This document shows, piece after piece, positions 39,726 to 64,000 of a DNA stretch of 64,000 bases. The stretch is taken from positions 40,064-104,063 of the forward strand of contig CAZFBA010000008.1 of assembly GCA_964517135.1 (NCBI GenBank), written 5' to 3'. This DNA comes from an uncultured Gammaproteobacteria bacterium (GTDB taxonomy: Bacteria > Cyanobacteriota > Vampirovibrionia > JBFMGH01). The notes under the pieces are model-generated. The model did no database searches and had not been told where the DNA came from. It saw only the letters and a program-made list of their open reading frames with translations. Both the position numbers and the translations under genes were made by a program. Position 1 is the first letter of the stretch. Every line of letters begins with the position of its first letter.

Positions 39726-42536
39726 TTATGTTTCCTGTTTGACAGGGATTACTATTGTGAAAGTGCTTCCTTTGCCGGGTTTGCTATCAACAAGTATCTG
39801 GCCTTTGTGCTTTTCAATGATTTGATAGCAAATTGATAGGCCCAGGCCCGTTCCAACTCCTACGCCTTTGGTAGTAAAACCTGGGTCAAATAGCTTTTTC
39901 ATGTGTTCTTCGCTGATTCCTGATCCTGTATCACTTATTGCAACAGAGACACTGTTGTTTATACAGCTGGTAGATATACTTATTGTACCTTTGTCAGTAA
40001 TACTCTGGTAGGCGTTGATTATTATGTTCATAAATACCTGATTTAGCAGGTTGGGATAGCATTCTATGGGTGGGAGATCGCCATACCGGGTATTGATATT
40101 TATTTTATCCTTTAGCTCATGCCGGATAAGCTGAAGAGTACTTTCTATTCCTTCGTGGATATTGACTGTTTTCAGATCTGACTCATCAAGCCTTGCAAAG
40201 TTTTTAAGGCTCTTAACAATCTCTTTTATTCTGTCAGTGGCCAGTATATTAATTTTATTTGTCTCATCTATTAGTGATACCAGCTGTTTTATTTTGTTGA
40301 TATCTGCTATTTCTTCTGAAAGTGCTTTCTGTATTTTATCTGTGCATTTCTTAAAAATACTGTTGTTAGAGGCAATTGAACCGACCGGTGTATTTATTTC
40401 ATGGGCTACACCAGCAACAAGCTGACCCAGTGATGCCATTTTTTCTGATTGTATGAGTTGAGCTTGTGTTTCTTTTAGCTTCTTTAAGGTTATTTCTAGT
40501 TCAGTTTTTTGTTTTTGTGTCTGTTCAAAAAGTATAGCCTGACTTACTGTTACTGTTATCTGGTCAGTTAGTATTTTAAGAAGATTTAAATCATCTGTAT
40601 GCCAGTCACGCTGTGCTGAAGCATCAGCAATAATTATGATACCTACTTCTCTATCCTGGTGTGTGATGGGGTCTTTTATATTTACAGGTGTCAGCAGGAT
40701 CGTATTAACAAGATTATCTTCCATAAAGCTTTTTATGTCTTCAGAAAGAAGCTTATCTGTTTGTTTCCATATAGTGATATCTCTGTTTTTAAGTGTATCA
40801 GTATTAAGTTTATCTTCAAGAAAACTCTCAAAATTGCTGTTAATGGAACTTTTATCATTGTTACTATATTCATAGATTGAATATTCTCTATTAGCTTCGC
40901 TGTAGTACCTGAAAAGGCAGTGTTTTACATTAAGTGTTTGGCCTAATTCTTTAACCGTAGTGTTTAAGACATCTTCAATTTTTAGAGACTTTCTGATAGA
41001 GCTGACAATTTGATTTATAAGTGTTTCTTTAAGAGCCTGAGTTTGTGTTTTCCAGTATAATTTAGCATTTTCTACTGCTATGGCAATCTGACCGGCTATT
41101 TGAGACATTATTTCGATGTCTGAGTCTGAATAACGGTTTTCTATCTGGCTGCCAACATAAAATATACCTGTAACTACCCCTTTGTTGATCATGGGTATTA
41201 TTATAGCTGACTTGATACCGCTTTTTTTTAATAGTGTTGTATCAGTAAACTGCTCATCATTGCTGATATCTAACATGACAGGCTTGAGATTATCGATGGC
41301 CCAGCTAATGGCGCTTCCGCTTATGATCAGAGGGCCAGTTCTTAATATATCTACCTGGCCGGTGTTTTTGATACGGGCAAAGAGTTTTATCTGTTGTGAT
41401 TTTTCATCAAGAGTGGCAATGCTGGCCCTGTCAAACTCTATAAGTCTTCTTATTTCTCTTCCGATGGTTTTCAGGACATCATCGATTATGAGCGTAGAGT
41501 TTACAGATTTTAAAATTTCATTTAGTACTGATATCTTGATGTTTTTAGATGTAGTATCTTCAAAAAGCCTGGCGTTTTTAATTGATATTGATATCTGATC
41601 TGCAATAGATTGAACCAGATTTATTTCTTCCGGGTGCCAGTCTTTATTTTTTCTGATTAGTAAGAGTATTGCAAAAAGTTCTTCATGGTGTATTACAGGT
41701 ACTATGAGCTTGTATTTTGTTGCCTGTATTTGATTTCCGGGATCTGTATGGATTCCAGTTGCAGGTCTATGAGTATCGAGCACTTCTTGCATATAGAAAT
41801 CGTTGTTGATATTAATTGTCTGGTTTAGATGTTCTGTTTTCCCTGATACTGTATATTCCTGTGTTATTGGCAATTCTGTTTCTCCTGGTATATTCTTGAT
41901 GAGTAGGGTGCTATCGGTGCCCAGGGTTTTACCAAGTTCTTTAACAGAGGCCTGAAGTATTGTATCTATTTCCAGTGAAGTTCTTATGGATGTTGCAATC
42001 TTGTTTACCAGTGATTCTCTTATTGCCTGTGATTGTGCCTGTGACTTTAGCTGTTCATTCTCTTTGATTTTTTCTTTTAATTTCCTGTTAGTTTCTTCCA
42101 GATCTTTATAGGCAATGTTGTAGTCTTTTAGAATCTTTTCTGAGAATGTTATGAGATAACCTGTATTCTCTATATAGTATGATTTAATTGTATAAAGTAA
42201 CTTGATGTCAGGTGAATATTCATATTCTGCTTCAATTGTACAGTTAATAGGGCTTTCAAGTATTACTGTAAAAGGAGAATAGTTTGCAATATCTATGGAA
42301 TCATCTAATATACAGCTCTCAAAGTTGAATAGAAAACCTGAATCTCTTAGATTGTGAGATCCTTCCTGTAATATATTTTTTGCAGCATTGTTAGCATAAA
42401 GAATATCACCATCTGGGCTTGAAATTATTACTATATCTTTTAATCCATCGATAAAATTATTCAGCCAGTTTTCTTTTGTCACTGGTTTTGCAGCTATTTT
42501 ATCCAAGAGGTTTTTCAGTATACTTTCTGTGTTCAC
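39726..42536 (-). CDS. Cytoplasmic multi-sensor histidine kinase (PAS/GAF repeats + HisKA + HATPase)
   Basis: 936 aa without obvious TM segments; N-terminal PAS-like region, at least two GAF-like modules separated by coiled-coil linkers, H-box region VAHEINTPVGSIA, ATPase motifs DTGSGIS and GTGLGLSICY. Confidence 0.85.
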   Translation of the reverse strand: MNTESILKNLLDKIAAKPVTKENWLNNFIDGLKDIVIISSPDGDILYANNAAKNILQEGSHNLRDSGFLFNFESCILDDSIDIANYSPFTVILESPINCTIEAEYEYSPDIKLLYTIKSYYIENTGYLITFSEKILKDYNIAYKDLEETNRKLKEKIKENEQLKSQAQSQAIRESLVNKIATSIRTSLEIDTILQASVKELGKTLGTDSTLLIKNIPGETELPITQEYTVSGKTEHLNQTININNDFYMQEVLDTHRPATGIHTDPGNQIQATKYKLIVPVIHHEELFAILLLIRKNKDWHPEEINLVQSIADQISISIKNARLFEDTTSKNIKISVLNEILKSVNSTLIIDDVLKTIGREIRRLIEFDRASIATLDEKSQQIKLFARIKNTGQVDILRTGPLIISGSAISWAIDNLKPVMLDISNDEQFTDTTLLKKSGIKSAIIIPMINKGVVTGIFYVGSQIENRYSDSDIEIMSQIAGQIAIAVENAKLYWKTQTQALKETLINQIVSSIRKSLKIEDVLNTTVKELGQTLNVKHCLFRYYSEANREYSIYEYSNNDKSSINSNFESFLEDKLNTDTLKNRDITIWKQTDKLLSEDIKSFMEDNLVNTILLTPVNIKDPITHQDREVGIIIIADASAQRDWHTDDLNLLKILTDQITVTVSQAILFEQTQKQKTELEITLKKLKETQAQLIQSEKMASLGQLVAGVAHEINTPVGSIASNNSIFKKCTDKIQKALSEEIADINKIKQLVSLIDETNKINILATDRIKEIVKSLKNFARLDESDLKTVNIHEGIESTLQLIRHELKDKININTRYGDLPPIECYPNLLNQVFMNIIINAYQSITDKGTISISTSCINNSVSVAISDTGSGISEEHMKKLFDPGFTTKGVGVGTGLGLSICYQIIEKHKGQILVDSKPGKGSTFTIVIPVKQET

Positions 42537-42772: not shown

Positions 42773-42999
42773 TGTGCTGATACATGGATTATTGTAACGC
42801 TTTTTGTCTTTGTATTACTCTTATATTCGCTCTTTTAGTTTTTTATTTCTGGTTATGAATAGCTATTTTTGATGAATTTTGGTTTAAACTTATAAAAAGA
42901 AAGAGCATAAGTGGTTTTTGACTGAAATCCTTTATAAGAATGCATTTTGATGCTTTTGATATAATAAACCAAGTATTATTAACCATAGAGGGGAATTAT

Positions 43000-43668
43000 A
43001 TGTCAACACAATTATCCGAAAAACTAGAGGCTGAATTTGTATCACTTGTGAAGCAAAGCTGGAAGACCCACCAGATCTATTTTTGGAATAACAGCGTAGA
43101 TGAAATTCTTATTGGTGCAGTTATTAACGCCAGTCTTGAAAAAGGCTATCTCCTGATAGATATTGCTTCAGAACGCCCATATCCTTATTCTGCTGCTACA
43201 ACATCCACAACAGGAGCATCTACTACAGGGGCGCCACCAACAGGCCCGATCTCTGCTATCCCTATTAATGCTCACTTTTTAAGATTTGAAAGTCCAAAAG
43301 ATAACAGTAGATTAATTTATCAGCTTGAAAGGATTACTACTGACCTTGCTGAAACGAAAGTTCTTGGTCAGCTTGCCAGAGTTACAATTGGATACGGAGA
43401 AAAGGCCAGTAACTTTAGTCAAACACTTGATATACTAAAGCAAGAGCTAAAATCAACTTTCGTAGATACAAGTGAACCCGGCATTATTACTTTCGATGCC
43501 AACATGAGTTCAGGCTATGTATATGCTCAGGTAACAATTATTATTAATATCGCCGACTATAACCTTGAGGATAAGATTAGCCATATCGACTACGATAAGC
43601 TGAATTACCACATTGAAGCGGTCGTTCACTCTCTAAAAAAATATCTAAAAGGCAGAAACATAATATAA
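43000..43668 (+). CDS. Hypothetical protein (two domains joined by a Thr/Gly/Pro-rich linker)
   Basis: ATG at 43000 preceded by AGAGGGG about 7 nt upstream (track ORF begins 42940). MSTQLSEKLEAEF...; linker SAATTSTTGASTTGAPPTGP; no family recognised. Confidence 0.55.
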   Translation: MSTQLSEKLEAEFVSLVKQSWKTHQIYFWNNSVDEILIGAVINASLEKGYLLIDIASERPYPYSAATTSTTGASTTGAPPTGPISAIPINAHFLRFESPKDNSRLIYQLERITTDLAETKVLGQLARVTIGYGEKASNFSQTLDILKQELKSTFVDTSEPGIITFDANMSSGYVYAQVTIIINIADYNLEDKISHIDYDKLNYHIEAVVHSLKKYLKGRNII

Positions 43669-43680
43669 AGGAGATTATAA

Positions 43681-44223
43681 ATGGGATTTTTTCAACTGGT
43701 ACAGGAATTTGCACACAAAAGGGAAATGCGTGAAAGCAAAGATGAAATACTCTTTGGTGAACTTATTAGATTAATGGTCAGAAATTACGGTCCACTTGTG
43801 GAACTCGAAACTTCTTCATACAGTGATCACAAACAGGCACGTTTTAGACTTCTTAATCATCCCCTGTTACATTCTGTTACCATTAAAGTAAATCGCTGGA
43901 CTGGCACAGGGGCTGTTTCAGAGGCGTTATTTGGAAGCATAGGCTCAGTCACCATAGTAGGAGAAGTTAAAAACTATGTTGCAGATCCTGATGATGTCTT
44001 AAATATGTGGAAAACAGACTTTAGTAATATTGGCAAAATACCTCTTCTAGGAGGCATAAAGGTTAATCACCAGATGAACTCTATTCTTGCAACCAAAGCA
44101 CGCAAGATAACTATCGGTGACTTCGTTAATAGCCAGCAAGAAGAACGCCAGAAACTCCAGGAAGAAATTAAAAGCGATATTAACGAGCTCTGTGAACAGC
44201 TTAAAAAGTTTAAAAAAGCCTAA
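43681..44223 (+). CDS. Hypothetical protein
   Basis: 180 aa; ATG preceded by AAAGGAG 7 nt upstream, directly after the stop of the preceding gene (operon). Coiled-coil-like C-terminus (QEERQKLQEEIKSDINELCEQLKKFKK). No family recognised. Confidence 0.55.
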   Translation: MGFFQLVQEFAHKREMRESKDEILFGELIRLMVRNYGPLVELETSSYSDHKQARFRLLNHPLLHSVTIKVNRWTGTGAVSEALFGSIGSVTIVGEVKNYVADPDDVLNMWKTDFSNIGKIPLLGGIKVNHQMNSILATKARKITIGDFVNSQQEERQKLQEEIKSDINELCEQLKKFKKA

Positions 44224-44811: not shown

Positions 44812-45663
44812 ATGGGCATTAATACAAATAAAAAGCAAAAACAAGTAGAAAAAACCTTCGACGAGTTAATATACGAGCTTCAAAACAGTCCATCCGAAAA
44901 AGTTAGATACAATGCAGCCAGAATGTTAGGCGAGTTAGGTGATTCAAGAGCAGTAGAGCCACTCATAGGTGTTTTACAGGAAGATAAAAACGGTTCTGTT
45001 CGTCTTTATGCCGCCAGAGCTTTAGGTGAATTAGGTGATATACAGGCCACTGAACCGCTGATTAACTCTTTAAAAGAAGATAGAAACGTTGATGTTCGTG
45101 TTAGAGCCGCCAGAGCGCTTGGTAAATTAGGTGGCAAAACGGTTGTAGCACCGTTAGTAGAAGCTTTAAGTGACAATAATAGTCAGGTTTGTTTAACAGC
45201 TACTGATGCATTAATAGAAATTGGCGAAATAGCTGTGGAAGCTCTTGTTGAATCTCTCTATCATGAAAAAGTTAATGTTCGCTGTGATGCAACCAGAGCA
45301 CTGGGTGAATTAGGTAACATAAAAGCTGTTGAGCCTATTATAGGAATGCTGGAAGATGAATGGGTTAATGTTAGAATCTATGCTGTTAACTCTCTTGGCA
45401 AACTGGGCGATACAAAAGCTGTTCCGGCTTTAGTAAAAGTTTTACAGGATGAATCTGAAAATGAACTCGTTAGAGCTGGCGCCGCTGCTGCACTTGGTGC
45501 ACTCAGAGATGTTAGAGCATTACTCCCTCTGAGAGAACTTATCATGGCTGCTGAAGAGCTTGGAGAACTTGAAGATACAGCTCTGAAAGCTTTCAAACAG
45601 ATTATGGCTGCCAACTGGAAAAATGTTCCTGGCGCTACAAATAAAAAAGCCATAAATAAATAG
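44812..45663 (+). CDS. HEAT-repeat protein (PBS-lyase HEAT-like repeats)
   Basis: 283 aa; tandem ~31-aa repeats of the form VR..AARALGELGD..AVEPLI..L.D (at least six), typical of PBS-lyase-type HEAT repeats. Confidence 0.85.
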   Translation: MGINTNKKQKQVEKTFDELIYELQNSPSEKVRYNAARMLGELGDSRAVEPLIGVLQEDKNGSVRLYAARALGELGDIQATEPLINSLKEDRNVDVRVRAARALGKLGGKTVVAPLVEALSDNNSQVCLTATDALIEIGEIAVEALVESLYHEKVNVRCDATRALGELGNIKAVEPIIGMLEDEWVNVRIYAVNSLGKLGDTKAVPALVKVLQDESENELVRAGAAAALGALRDVRALLPLRELIMAAEELGELEDTALKAFKQIMAANWKNVPGATNKKAINK

Positions 45664-55343: not shown

Positions 55344-56702
55344 ATGCAAAAACATGTCTTGATAATTGGTGGTGGTCTTGCTGGTTCTGAAGCAGCTCTT
55401 TTTCTTGCACAAAAAGGTATTAAAGTTACACTTTATGAGATGCGGCCAGCTTTTCAGACCGCTGTTCATAAAACAGGCTGGATGGCAGAACTTGTGTGCA
55501 GCAATAGTCTTGGGTCATATGCTCTTGACAATGCTTCGGGAGTAATGAAAGAAGAGATTATCAGGCTGGGGTCTTCTCTTATACCTGCTGCTTATCATTG
55601 CAAGATACCGGCAGGTGGTGCCCTCGCTGTTGACAGGGATCAATTTGCTCTCTATGTTACTGAAAAAATTGAATCTCATCCGATGATTGAAGTTAAATAT
55701 GAACCTGTACATGATATACATGTATATGTTGATTTATTTGATGCAATATTAATTGCAACTGGCCCTCTAACTTCTGATGAGTTTGCTCTTAATCTTGCAA
55801 AAATGACTGGTGAAAGCTATTTACACTTCTATGATGCGGTGGCTCCTATAGTAGAGTTTGATTCTATAGATATGTCAATTGCTTACAAAATGGATCGTTA
55901 CAATAAAACAGGTGAGGCCTCTTATATAAACTGCCCGATGACAGAAGAAGAGCATAGCAGGTTTTATGATTATCTCATTAATGCACCCGTAATAGAACTT
56001 AAAGACTTTGAAAAAGACTGTAAATACTTTGAAAGCTGTATGCCAGTAGAAGTGATTGCCAGCAGGGGAATAGACACCCTTAGATTTGGCCCTATGAAGC
56101 CTGTGGGACTTCCTTATCCAGGAACTGATAAAATCCCTTATGCTGTAGTGCAACTTCGTCAGGATAATGCTATTGCCAGTCTGTATAATCTGGTTGGTTT
56201 TCAGACAAATTTAAAGTGGTCTGCCCAGAAGGAACTTATTAAACTGATCCCGGGACTTCAGAATGCCAGTATAGTTCGCTATGGCGTTATGCATCGCAAT
56301 ACATATATTAATAGTCCTGTGCTTTTAAATTCGTCGTTGAACTTTAAAGCATCTCCATCAGTTTTTATTGCCGGTCAGCTAACAGGGGTAGAAGGCTATA
56401 CAGAGTCAATAGCAACAGGTCTTCTTGCTGCAATCAATATATTATGCTATTTATATAAAGAACCTTTGTTAGAACTATCTTCTGATACTGTTCTGGGATC
56501 TCTCTGTAATTATATAACTTCTGCTGATCCCGGGCATTTTCAGCCTATGAACGCAAACTGGGGTATTGTTAACCCGCCGGATGCTTATGAAAAGCTTAAA
56601 AACAAAAAAATGCGCAGGCAATTCTACTCTCAAAGGGCTTTGAGATGTATAGATAATTGGGCTAAAATCTTAAGTCAAAGGTTAACAGAAGTTATGCGCT
56701 AA
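55344..56702 (+). CDS. trmFO: Methylenetetrahydrofolate--tRNA-(uracil54-C5)-methyltransferase TrmFO
   Basis: Start at ATG 55344 (MQKHVLIIGGGLAGSEAALFLAQKG FAD-binding motif); AELVCSNSLGS conserved TrmFO/Gid motif. Track ORF begins at TTG 55281. Confidence 0.85.
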   Translation: MQKHVLIIGGGLAGSEAALFLAQKGIKVTLYEMRPAFQTAVHKTGWMAELVCSNSLGSYALDNASGVMKEEIIRLGSSLIPAAYHCKIPAGGALAVDRDQFALYVTEKIESHPMIEVKYEPVHDIHVYVDLFDAILIATGPLTSDEFALNLAKMTGESYLHFYDAVAPIVEFDSIDMSIAYKMDRYNKTGEASYINCPMTEEEHSRFYDYLINAPVIELKDFEKDCKYFESCMPVEVIASRGIDTLRFGPMKPVGLPYPGTDKIPYAVVQLRQDNAIASLYNLVGFQTNLKWSAQKELIKLIPGLQNASIVRYGVMHRNTYINSPVLLNSSLNFKASPSVFIAGQLTGVEGYTESIATGLLAAINILCYLYKEPLLELSSDTVLGSLCNYITSADPGHFQPMNANWGIVNPPDAYEKLKNKKMRRQFYSQRALRCIDNWAKILSQRLTEVMR

Positions 56703-57183
56703 AAATAAACCCGTTTTTAGCGTCATTTTGAGAAATTTTGTTAAGAAATTCACCTGGCCTGAATAGTCCCAGTACATTAAAAGATTCTTCAACCCTCTTT
56801 TTAGCTTTGACAGGTCTGGCCTGGGGGTTTGTCTGGTCTGAAAAGATGTTTTCCATAAGACTTTTACTATCATCATTTTCAGAACCATTCCTGTTGTCAG
56901 CCAGTTGTTGTTTCTGTCTTATTTCGTTGTTTGACTGTAAACTGCCGACAAGACTCTCATATGAGCTTAATAGCCCATTATGAGATTTAGCATTAGGGTT
57001 TGTTGAATGCTTTAGTCTGGTGCTATTTTGATCAGGCCTGATGTCCTTAGAATAAGGCTGTTTTTGACTCGCAAGCCCAAACAATGCTAAGTTTTTAGCC
57101 ACGTCGTTACAAATGTTGTCCACCGCGATCCTCTCTCTTACCCAAGTTTCCCTTAACTTAGTTAGATCAGGATTTAAACACAA
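56692..57183 (-). CDS. Hypothetical low-complexity protein (doubtful)
   Basis: 163 aa from a TTG start, Ser/Asn/Gln-rich, overlaps the trmFO 3' end by 11 nt; no RBS or family recognised. Confidence 0.25.
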   Translation of the reverse strand: MCLNPDLTKLRETWVRERIAVDNICNDVAKNLALFGLASQKQPYSKDIRPDQNSTRLKHSTNPNAKSHNGLLSSYESLVGSLQSNNEIRQKQQLADNRNGSENDDSKSLMENIFSDQTNPQARPVKAKKRVEESFNVLGLFRPGEFLNKISQNDAKNGFIFSA

Positions 57184-60644: not shown

Positions 60645-61802
60645 CTAGCTGACTGCCTGTGTTACCATTGTGGCTGCTTCTGCCATGGTATCTGCAACAG
60701 AAAATTTTAAATTTGAATTTTTTAGTATATTTTTGCCTTCTTCAACGTTTGTACCTTCCAGTCTAATTATGACAGGCAGGTTTACCTGTGATTTTTCTGC
60801 TGCTTCGACTACCCCTTTTGCGAGATTATCACACCGGAGTATGCCACCGAAGATGTTGATTAGAACAGCCCTGACATTTTTGTCTTTTAGCAGTATATTA
60901 AAGGCATTTTCAATACCTTCTACAGTTGCACCGCCCCCTACATCAAGGAAATTAGCAGGCGAGCTTCCAGCCAGTTTTATTATGTCCATTGTTGCCATGG
61001 CAAGCCCTGCACCATTGACCATACAGCCTACGTTACCATCTAGTTTGATGTAGTTCAGGCTATATTTAGAAGCTTCTACTTCTAGCGGATCTTCTTCATC
61101 AGTGTCTCTGAGTGCTTGAATATCTTTGTGTCTGTGTAAAGCTGAGTCGTCAAAATTTAATTTGGCATCCAGGGCTAAAATATGGTTGTCTTTAGTAAGA
61201 ACCAGCGGATTTATTTCAGCAAGACTACAGTCTTTTGAGATGAAAAGGTTATATAAATTAGCTATAAAACTCATGGCTTCTTTGTGTACTTCTTTTGGAA
61301 GATTAAGTTTGGTGACGATATTCCGTGCCTGAAAGGGTTTAAAGCCAATCATGGGGTTAATGTATTCTTTGATAATGAGTTCGGGTGTTTTAGCTGCTAC
61401 TTCTTCGATCTCCATTCCGCCGGCTGAACTGGCCATTATAACCGGGCATGCGCTTGATCTGTCAATGACAATGCCGAGATAGAGTTCTTTTTCAATTTCT
61501 TTGATTTCTTCAATTAGAATCTTTTTAACGATTTTTCCTTCGGTGCCGGTTTGTTTAGAGACAAGTTTCATTCCTATTAGTTCATTAGCAAACTTCTTAA
61601 CGTCTTCTTTTGTTTTAGCAAGTTTAATTCCACCTGCTTTGCCTCTCCCACCTGCGTGAACTTGTGCTTTTAAGACGCAAACATTACCCAGATTGTCTCC
61701 GATTTCAATGCTTTTTTCGGTTGTTTCTGCTACTTCTCCTGCTGGTACCGGTATACCAAATTCTTTGAGCAGGTTTTTTGCCTGATATTCGTGTACTTTC
61801 AT
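60645..61802 (-). CDS. sucC: Succinate--CoA ligase subunit beta
   Basis: Start at internal Met 61802 (MKVHEYQAKNLLKEFGIPVP, canonical SucC N-terminus) with GAGGA SD upstream; ATP-grasp and CoA-ligase domains. Confidence 0.9.
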   Translation of the reverse strand: MKVHEYQAKNLLKEFGIPVPAGEVAETTEKSIEIGDNLGNVCVLKAQVHAGGRGKAGGIKLAKTKEDVKKFANELIGMKLVSKQTGTEGKIVKKILIEEIKEIEKELYLGIVIDRSSACPVIMASSAGGMEIEEVAAKTPELIIKEYINPMIGFKPFQARNIVTKLNLPKEVHKEAMSFIANLYNLFISKDCSLAEINPLVLTKDNHILALDAKLNFDDSALHRHKDIQALRDTDEEDPLEVEASKYSLNYIKLDGNVGCMVNGAGLAMATMDIIKLAGSSPANFLDVGGGATVEGIENAFNILLKDKNVRAVLINIFGGILRCDNLAKGVVEAAEKSQVNLPVIIRLEGTNVEEGKNILKNSNLKFSVADTMAEAATMVTQAVS

Positions 61803-61920
61803 TGCTTTTTTCCTCTGAATCTCTTCCAATATTTTTTGATTATAACTTTAAAATGTTTGATTTTATACAATTTTTTAAATAAATTTTCGCAATTATTGAA
61901 GGATGTAAAGTCTTTGAGAG

Positions 61921-62892
61921 TTATTTATACGGATAAATTAGGGCAAATGTGCGGGGGAAGTTAGATGTTTTAAAAAATTTGGTCTGAAATGATAGTGTGT
62001 TAAATTCATCCGGACTTCCTGTGTCGATTTTGATTCTTGTTAGCCTGATTAAGCTATCCATAAGTTCTAATTTTGATATTGATGGTGGAATATCGTTATA
62101 CAGAAAAAGGTTATTTACTGGTTTTAATAATGGATAGGTGTTGAGATCGGGTTTAATGCTGCATAGAAAGCTTTTGTTGTTTATTGAACTGCTTTTAATT
62201 AGTATGCTTTTGCGTTTGGACATTTTTGAGGAGAATACGCCCCATATGCTTTTATTTTTGTATATTAATGCTATGTGATAAAGGTATATGTCTGATGAAA
62301 AGATATCCATGATGCCTAAATCACCTTCTATTAGTGCTGGTATAAAGAATGATTTAGAAAAAACTTCTTCCTGTGTTTTAGAGGAAATGATGCTATATGT
62401 TACAGGTGTATCAGGTAGAGGGAGTGAGTTTTCAGAATTAATACAGGTAAATTCTTTAATGGCAGGGATCATATCGTATATCCAGAGTCGTTTTTGCGTA
62501 TCTAGAAACAAAAAACCTGTATAAGAATCTTTAATAAATTCGTCTTTGTTGAAATTTTCTTGCCAGAGATTTAATATTTGCTTCTGTGCTGGGCTATCTT
62601 TAGCAAATAAGTCAATATCTTCTTCATCGACAGAGGTTATCTCTGCTATTCTGGGCTTTATTGTATTAATAAGAGCGATAACATCTCTCACTTTTGATTT
62701 AATGTCAAAAGTGATAATCTTATTCTGTTTGATGTTCAGGTTAAATTCTATCAGTAATTCTTTTTCATAATCTTCAAATTGTCTAAAGAGTTGAAAATAT
62801 TCATCTTTATCTTTATTGGTTAGACTTAAAGCAACTCCTGAAAGGCTGATAGAACTTTTATTAGAAAAAGCGAAACCGTTAACTTTAGTCAT
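61921..62892 (-). CDS. Hypothetical protein (323 aa)
   Basis: Long ORF 9 nt downstream of the zinc-ribbon ORF on the same strand (operon). No recognisable motifs. Confidence 0.5.
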   Translation of the reverse strand: MTKVNGFAFSNKSSISLSGVALSLTNKDKDEYFQLFRQFEDYEKELLIEFNLNIKQNKIITFDIKSKVRDVIALINTIKPRIAEITSVDEEDIDLFAKDSPAQKQILNLWQENFNKDEFIKDSYTGFLFLDTQKRLWIYDMIPAIKEFTCINSENSLPLPDTPVTYSIISSKTQEEVFSKSFFIPALIEGDLGIMDIFSSDIYLYHIALIYKNKSIWGVFSSKMSKRKSILIKSSSINNKSFLCSIKPDLNTYPLLKPVNNLFLYNDIPPSISKLELMDSLIRLTRIKIDTGSPDEFNTLSFQTKFFKTSNFPRTFALIYPYK

Positions 62893-62901
62893 AAAAATAG
62901 T

Positions 62902-63963
62902 CTATGGTTGTGTTTGAGTCTCTGGAAACTTAATATAGTTTGTTAATAGTATTTCTACGTTAAAACATACTGGTGCAACATTAGCACTGGGTACCATTTC
63001 TTCCAGTTTGTTTCTCCACCAGGTACCTATTTCAGATCTATTACTGACAATATATGCGTTATTGATTATAGCATTTGAGCATGCTTCTAAAAGTAATCTT
63101 GAAATTGCCATTCTTTCTGTAACATTGGGTGGTGTAATCAGCAACCAGTTTTCAGAGCTTGTTAAAGCTTGATATGCAAGGTACCATGTTTTAGGGTTTG
63201 TTTGTGGATTATTTATATCGACTGGATATAAATCCGGATAGGCAGCTGAGGAGCACTTTTTGCATATGCCTGCAACGGTGTTAGAATAGTTTTTCTGGAA
63301 GGTTTTAGTGCCGCATGCCGGGCAATAGAATATAGATGTTATTCCTCCAAGAGGGTAAATCTTCCAGTATTTGTCTGATGTAGCTTTTTTAATATCATTT
63401 ATACTGAAATCTGCTTCGCTTATGGATAGTAATTTTATGATTTCGCTATCATATCCTGAAACTATAATAACACCTGACTTTGGATATTTTGCCAGTAAGG
63501 TTTCCAGGCCGCTGAGTTCCTGAGAATTTTTATCAAGAGATTTTAAAAGTTTTGCTATAGTGTTTAGAAAGTCTGTATCGGGCTTTGTGTTAGGGTTTAT
63601 AGAAAGATTGTTTAGTGTGTTTCGCAGTTCCACAACAGCTTTTGTTTGTTCTGGAGTATTGATACTGTCAATAAATATGACAAAAGGGATATCAGGAGAC
63701 TTAACTTTCCCTATAGGAGCCATTTTGTGTGAGGTATATGCTGGAGAATCCTTTTTAGGTGATTCTGTTATGCCAGATTGTAGTGGCTGAGTGCTTGCTG
63801 GAGAAAGAACACTGTCAATTATATTTGTCATTTTGTTTATCAGATCTTCAGGTACATTTTCTTTTTTTGCGGTATCCATTACTTTATACCACTCTTGGAT
63901 TTCTGAAATAGTGGTTCCTGAGTTTATCAGTTCTATTGTCCTTGATAAACCATATTCAAACAT
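62902..63963 (-). CDS. Hypothetical protein with Cys4 zinc-ribbon (CPACG...CKKC); may extend beyond window
   Basis: 353 aa from Met at 63963; the frame stays open upstream to the window edge (64000), so the true start may be outside. Zinc-ribbon-like FYCPACGTKTF...GICKKCSS. Confidence 0.5.
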   Translation of the reverse strand: MFEYGLSRTIELINSGTTISEIQEWYKVMDTAKKENVPEDLINKMTNIIDSVLSPASTQPLQSGITESPKKDSPAYTSHKMAPIGKVKSPDIPFVIFIDSINTPEQTKAVVELRNTLNNLSINPNTKPDTDFLNTIAKLLKSLDKNSQELSGLETLLAKYPKSGVIIVSGYDSEIIKLLSISEADFSINDIKKATSDKYWKIYPLGGITSIFYCPACGTKTFQKNYSNTVAGICKKCSSAAYPDLYPVDINNPQTNPKTWYLAYQALTSSENWLLITPPNVTERMAISRLLLEACSNAIINNAYIVSNRSEIGTWWRNKLEEMVPSANVAPVCFNVEILLTNYIKFPETQTQP

Positions 63964-64000
63964 TTGCCAGTCTTTTCTTTTTAGAGCAACCTTTAGCCTT

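Follow-up and report, generated by a model that had tools for sequence, protein, structure and literature searches.

Protein A, the product of a gene cut by the edge of the analysed DNA, is probably a degenerate SIR2-fold protein that serves as a dedicated partner of the pilus retraction ATPase PilT, as a regulator or adaptor of retraction, in the Vampirovibrionia/Melainabacteria and related non-photosynthetic Cyanobacteriota. Its gene lies on the minus strand at the end of the window, by which we mean the whole stretch of 64,000 nucleotides, and is followed by the gene of a second protein, B, and by sucCD. The initial annotation had described two consecutive minus-strand ORFs of at least 353 aa and 323 aa with a 9-nt gap, and their coordinates were confirmed as follows:

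61921 to 62892, minus strand: ORF-B, encoding protein B, 323 aa, cytoplasmic and beta-rich
62902 to 64000, minus strand: ORF-A, cut by the window edge, encoding protein A, a sirtuin-fold zinc-ribbon protein coupled to PilT

The stop of ORF-A was located at 62902 on the minus strand and the first in-window ATG at 63963, which gives 353 aa in the ORF list; the gap between the two ORFs occupies 62893-62901. Reading of the sequence from 63963 to the window edge at 64000 showed the frame to be free of stops, and it had been proposed that the protein might be longer. An exact-sequence look-up of B returned 23 contigs from the same organism, some of them up to hundreds of kb in length, and on identical longer contigs the full-length protein A was found to comprise 377 aa (L001:8858-9991). 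Extension of the window had been suggested as a check, and it revealed no upstream stop that would shorten ORF-A, but a longer and conserved protein. The true initiation codon precedes the in-window ATG by 24 codons and falls ∼35 nt past the window end. The 24 residues that are absent from the in-window ORF, MAYAESESMALKRLKVALKRKDWQ, were almost invariant among the homologues and form the best-conserved stretch of A, and the upstream start is therefore taken as the real one. Within the close clade, almost all of residues 3-23 were invariant, while the in-window ATG encodes residue 25, a position at which most family members carry Leu. On the evidence of sequence, both ORF-A and ORF-B are real genes; short ORFs of 74-78 aa on the opposite strand were considered and rejected as competitors to them.

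The domain organisation of A was derived as follows:

63805 to 64000, minus strand: N-terminal helical domain, residues 1-77, with four predicted helices; its first 12 residues fall outside the window
63691 to 63804, minus strand: disordered linker of variable length, residues 78-115, with pLDDT <50 for model residues 67-103
62920 to 63690, minus strand: SIR2-like Rossmann core without the canonical NAD and catalytic motifs, residues ∼116-372
63253 to 63324, minus strand: Cys4 zinc module (C238, C241, C258 and C261) at the position of the sirtuin zinc ribbon

The AlphaFold2 model, obtained with a 17-sequence alignment, had a pLDDT of 81.8 and a confident alpha/beta core at model residues 106-360. 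Conservation was unevenly distributed across these regions. The strongest constraint was on the N-terminal domain, with a mean majority-residue fraction of 0.62, against 0.40 in the core and 0.20 in the linker, which also showed large length variation across homologues. The N-terminal domain carries the family motif M-x-[FY]-[PA]-E-x-E-x-M-x-[IL]-K-R-L-x-V-A-L-[KR], in which E5, E7, K12, R13 and A17 were at least 90% conserved among the 57 homologues. A reading of this domain as an HPt domain, raised by a 'KLHEKFH' segment in distant members, was discarded as the His is not conserved in the clade of the window and no Pfam Hpt match was obtained. The CPACG and CKKC motifs, already recognised as zinc-ribbon-like at the outset, are present in ORF-A (codons 63322-63324 and 63253-63255), and the four Cys of the zinc module are the sole invariant columns in the 57 homologues. 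This Cys4 set is a true, conserved zinc module.

The initial annotation had assigned neither protein to a recognised family. This holds at the level of profile libraries, where scans of A and B with Pfam, NCBIfam, PADLOC and PHROG gave no match above threshold; it does not hold at the level of the fold, where A proved to be a remote, degenerate sirtuin homologue. A Foldseek search with the A model returned 35 matches at E<=1e-3, nearly all of them sirtuins, SIRT5 and CobB included, and the best was the SIR2 protein of the SIR2/HerA complex 8wld (E 5e-6). The model displayed a large domain of Rossmann type into which a small domain is inserted, and it resembled solved sirtuins overall. A comparison of the A family profile with the PDB placed Sir2-Af2 and Sir2-Af1 at sub-threshold values (E 0.13-0.3). 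In this profile-versus-PDB comparison, the strand preceding the zinc module, together with the initial CxxC of A, aligned to the Sir2-Af2 segment 'LHGSLRVVRCTSC', and 'iPlfGlsnlFkCskC' of A fell on 'ihLHGSLRVVRCTSC' within an alignment of 80 residues. Matches to sirtuin profiles were likewise sub-threshold throughout. NCBIfam models of NAD-dependent protein deacylases were hit weakly by nine of the 57 A members (best E 9.5e-5) and Pfam SIR2 by two of them (best E 4.4e-4); the window protein itself had no Pfam SIR2 match, and its best NCBIfam deacylase match reached E 0.05 and 13 bits against a cut-off of 221.

The canonical sirtuin motifs were then mapped onto the A family by an alignment of sequence and secondary structure rather than by superposition. 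The hhalign alignments of the family with the single E. coli CobB sequence were not significant (E 0.2-0.5) and were used for motif mapping only; one, at low stringency in local mode, spanned the full length and was collinear over 217 columns, and a second, short alignment fell at the HG/zinc-ribbon segment. The correspondences were:

GAGxS: replaced by FIDS or FYGQDSS, not conserved; the glycine-rich loop is absent
TQNID: replaced by T-[NTS]-S-x-S; the Q and N are absent
Catalytic His of 'HG': A position 230, occupied by F in 25 members, L in 8, G in 6, Y in 4, A in 3 and other residues in the rest; His in 0 of 57
Gly after the 'HG' His position: retained in 56 of 57 members
GTS: replaced by [NH]-P-[PS]

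Polar residues nevertheless persist at several former NAD-contacting loops, namely T192, S194, S196, N234, [NH]301 and [SD]-K-D at 331-333. The high-GC homologues of A carry KL[AGCN]GS, which resembles the KLHGS motif found in SIR2 proteins of the defence type, except that another residue takes the place of the His.

Classical zinc-ribbon sirtuins (CobB, Sir2Tm of Thermotoga, Archaeoglobus Sir2-Af1 and Sir2-Af2; PF02146) have the Cys4 ribbon in common with A. When A was held against the features of this class (PF02146, PRK00481), the ribbon was present, whereas the catalytic His, the GAGxS and TQNID motifs, including the Q and N of the latter, and a score above the HMM cut-off were all lacking across the 57 members. 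A differs further from the classical proteins in its additional conserved N-terminal helical domain and disordered linker, and in its constant pairing with pilT. In keeping the zinc ligands and lacking the catalytic residues, A shows the reverse of the pattern in defence SIR2 proteins, and it was therefore not filed as a functional sirtuin. It looks like a classical zinc-ribbon sirtuin in which catalysis has been lost, an assignment that we make at the level of fold and superfamily only.

These observations bear directly on whether A might still be an active NAD-consuming enzyme with a non-canonical site, such as a deacylase or ADP-ribosyltransferase that acts on PilT, pilins or other targets. 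The full retention of the sirtuin fold and zinc module would agree with this, and the small polar residues conserved at several NAD-contact loops could permit a non-canonical activity or nucleotide binding. However, the catalytic His was found in none of the 57 members, the Q/N of TQNID and the GAGxS loop are gone, no sirtuin HMM was matched at threshold, and the best-conserved part of the protein is the N-terminal domain and not the pocket. We consider an active enzyme unlikely and favour a catalytically silent partner of PilT.

The partnership with PilT is indicated by the genomic context. The ATG of A is located 2 nt past the stop of a gene for a 382-aa ATPase of the T2SSE family, just outside the window. 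This ATPase scored 440.5 bits with TIGR01420 (cut-off 319.1) and aligned end to end with the Geobacter PilT structures 5zfq and 6ojx (E 4e-101, residues 25-371). Its Walker A and B motifs, Asp box and His box are intact, and they were invariant across six partner PilTs. As judged from these matches, the gene upstream of A is an orthodox type IVa pilus retraction ATPase, PilT. In this organism serS, pilT, A and B form a tightly packed run, and A and B are assigned to this pilT operon and not to sucCD. The order serS-pilT-A-B-sucC-sucD-TPR was identical in eight loci of the clade of the window; two shorter contigs stop inside this serS-to-TPR block, one within B (L010) and the other just after A (L015). 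In every locus of this clade, the end of serS shares 4 nt with the start of pilT (ATGA, L001:7707-7710), and translational coupling between genes for a tRNA synthetase and a pilus motor is unusual. The clade also conserves the arrangement upstream of serS (L001:1-6069), where genes for two membrane proteins of the DUF2298 type are accompanied by two divergently oriented radical-SAM genes; one of the latter has a BATS domain and is HydE/HydG-like.

The adjacency of pilT and A was invariable. A pilT gene directly preceded A in 12 of the 12 contexts with a visible upstream gene, four of which have unrelated flanks; as eight of the 12 share ancestry and gene order, they amount to only ∼5 independent cases, and the high-GC homologues are not among them. 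In the four distant members, which are 19-30% identical to A, a PilT orthologue was found directly before A at gaps of 4-27 nt, while everything else in the neighbourhood was different, and both B and sucCD were absent. Because the distant loci keep pilT-A only, this pair is regarded as the conserved unit, and both B and the adjacency to sucCD as clade-specific. A 398-aa gene upstream of pilT in one distant locus (L018) was examined as a possible relative of B and found to be unrelated.

In three distant Gastranaerophilales-like loci, the start of recO lies 1-3 nt past the end of A or within A, with an overlap of 14 nt (L019:6894-10034, L020:6864-9939, L021:5426-8697). These pilT-A-recO operons may hint at a link between PilT-A and DNA uptake or recombination. 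They can also be read in another way, with the pilT-A adjacency as mere inherited order and A as a free-standing zinc-binding scaffold, possibly in DNA metabolism. The spacing of recO in these three loci, at most 3 nt after A or overlapping it, would suit this reading, as would the origin of all contexts from one class-level lineage. Against it, pilT and A have remained contiguous, with gaps of 2-27 nt over all contexts and A identity down to ∼19%, though both flanks change. We therefore hold inherited order to be distinctly unlikely as the explanation of this pair, and retain PilT as the probable partner of A.

The SIR2-HerA (Nezha) system likewise combines a SIR2-fold protein with a ring-forming ASCE ATPase, the two genes being adjacent and translationally coupled, and its SIR2 (8wld) was the best Foldseek match. 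It could accordingly be asked whether pilT-A, with or without B, is an anti-phage or conflict module of this kind, in which a hexameric ATPase senses infection and a SIR2 effector kills or arrests the cell. In defence SIR2 proteins the catalytic N/D/H residues are retained and the zinc finger typical of classical sirtuins is missing (PMC11472057), whereas A has the zinc finger and no counterpart of N, D or H. The partner ATPase is an orthodox PilT and not HerA, and PADLOC returned no system match. The loci also differ from defence islands in that their place in the core genome is fixed, they are flanked by housekeeping genes even at deep divergence, and their GC content is similar (32-38%); no copies of A on plasmids or phages were found in our searches. 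A defence module is on these grounds very unlikely.

Protein B and its distance to sucC were the other elements of the original description. Homologues of B were 40-51% identical and 319-323 aa long, except for the 181-aa P0023, which comes from a 1.2-kb contig. Detectable relatives of B were far fewer than those of A and were found only in the clade of the window; a B profile run against six-frame translations of the distant A loci gave nothing. Conservation of the two genes as a pair, which had been suggested as a check, therefore holds in this clade, but only A is widely conserved. The structural matches of B were generic Ig-like folds (immunoglobulin/FN3-like beta-sandwich) that imply no specific family. 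B may have joined the pilT-A module as a clade-specific adaptor, putatively with a beta-sandwich fold.

The spacer between B and sucC was annotated as follows:

61803 to 61920, minus strand: B-sucC spacer, with TATAAT at 61839-61844 and, ahead of the sucC ATG at 61802, an AGAGG Shine-Dalgarno sequence

A spacer of ∼90 bp had been reported, and this agrees with the 91 nt to a TTG at 61829, but the distance to the ATG at 61802 chosen by the gene caller is 118 nt. The TATAAT is a perfect one and precedes the sucC ATG by 37 nt. TATAATC was observed in seven of eight orthologous spacers, the rest of the spacer being divergent, and the AGAGG Shine-Dalgarno was also kept in the alignment of the eight, while spacer length varied from 99 to 211 nt. 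A generic scan of the spacer for a terminator or a full sigma-70 consensus found none; it missed the TATAAT because the -35 element is poor. The TATAAT is probably the promoter of sucCD itself, and its conservation with the Shine-Dalgarno in a spacer of variable length suggests that sucCD is transcribed separately.

The placement of the pair directly upstream of sucCD had been singled out as unusual. This position occurs in one clade only, sucC has its own TATAAT, and the four distant homologues have no sucCD nearby, so the emphasis on this placement was not borne out. A functional tie of A and B to succinyl-CoA synthetase, for instance through regulation of sucCD in the manner of a desuccinylase, might be read from their position directly upstream of sucCD in all eight loci of the clade, and from the fact that some sirtuins are desuccinylases, with SIRT5 and CobB being among the fold matches of A. 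The lack of sucCD in four of four distant loci, the conserved TATAAT and Shine-Dalgarno elements in the variable spacer, and the missing catalytic residues of A all speak against this, and we regard it as highly improbable. Inherited gene order without functional meaning is the best explanation for the position of A and B beside sucCD.

The A family extends well beyond the clade of the window. There were 16 close homologues at 39-66% identity, among them one named Vampirovibrionia MAG and one GTDB representative, a Cyanobacteriota MAG. The exhaustive profile search recovered ∼100 clusters at 50% identity, with 98 representatives at E<=1e-3 and 75 at E<=1e-10; the closest had an E of 1e-165, and identity reached down to ∼17%. 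A genome scan and a metagenome scan with A each gave one locus. Named members belong to Vampirovibrionia/Melainabacteria or to unclassified Cyanobacteriota, and these members, or their neighbours, indicate three groups, namely Candidatus Gastranaerophilales, 'Cyanobacteria bacterium UBA8530' and further MAGs of the Cyanobacteriota; a single partial sequence carries the label Bacteroidota. The high-GC homologues (P0086, P0092-P0105) belong to MAGs that bear the names Cyanobacteria bacterium UBA8530, Oscillatoriaceae, Chroococcales and, once, Bacteroidota. Several of them end in a basic KKKHRR or KKKTRR tail that the low-GC members do not have.

Given the above, a role for A at the pilus motor can be proposed. 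The Rossmann/Cys4 body would be tethered through the flexible linker to the conserved N-terminal helical domain, and it is most likely through this domain that A would bind the PilT hexamer. Rather than working as an NAD-dependent enzyme, A would regulate, adapt or localise pilus retraction; its remodelled former NAD pocket may sense a ligand, and B may contribute a clade-specific interaction to the PilT-A module. The assembly would parallel those of SIR2 with HerA that were solved recently, where the SIR2-fold partner is docked on a ring ATPase. By this analogy we tentatively consider a more specific arrangement, possible though not the outcome that we would expect, in which A caps or rings the PilT hexamer as SIR2 does HerA, and the dead pocket senses an NAD-derived or other nucleotide and gates retraction, and possibly DNA uptake. 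[quoted passage not shown]

Pilus motors have a number of accessory factors, including PilZ and FimX (PilB), PilU (PilT), the MshEN c-di-GMP domain, and the cyanobacterial Hfq and EbsA, which act with PilB1. A would resemble these as a lineage-specific cytoplasmic protein genetically attached to a motor ATPase, a likeness of function alone, as its fold is unrelated and none of the known factors is sirtuin-like. To our knowledge, few protein partners of PilT have been described, and how retraction is controlled is under active study in the type IV pilus field. Our literature searches turned up no description of a sirtuin-like partner of PilT. The novelty lies not in the sirtuin fold, which is known, but in its catalytically dead form, the N-terminal module and the obligate linkage to pilT. 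A family that follows pilT across a whole bacterial class is a concrete candidate for a retraction regulator, and A would exemplify a bacterial sirtuin turned pseudoenzyme. The Melainabacteria are gut and environmental relatives of the Cyanobacteria, with no cultured hosts and almost no experimental genetics, and ∼100 clusters of their 'hypothetical proteins' would hereby gain a name and a testable hypothesis.

Several other genes in the window were noted. Two adjacent plus-strand ORFs of 242 and 180 aa (42940-43668 and 43681-44223) had no Pfam match; they are presumably the first uncharacterised pair, to which the heading of the initial annotation alludes in calling A and B the second. The same applied to a 163-aa minus-strand ORF between trmFO and waaA (56692-57183), a position at which a gene of 136-163 aa was called in several syntenic loci. 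The minus strand at 39726-42536 encodes a histidine kinase of 936 aa, in which GAF, HisKA and HATPase_c domains are present, and which is followed by a HEAT/PBS-lyase-repeat protein (44812-45663), here in a non-photosynthetic lineage.
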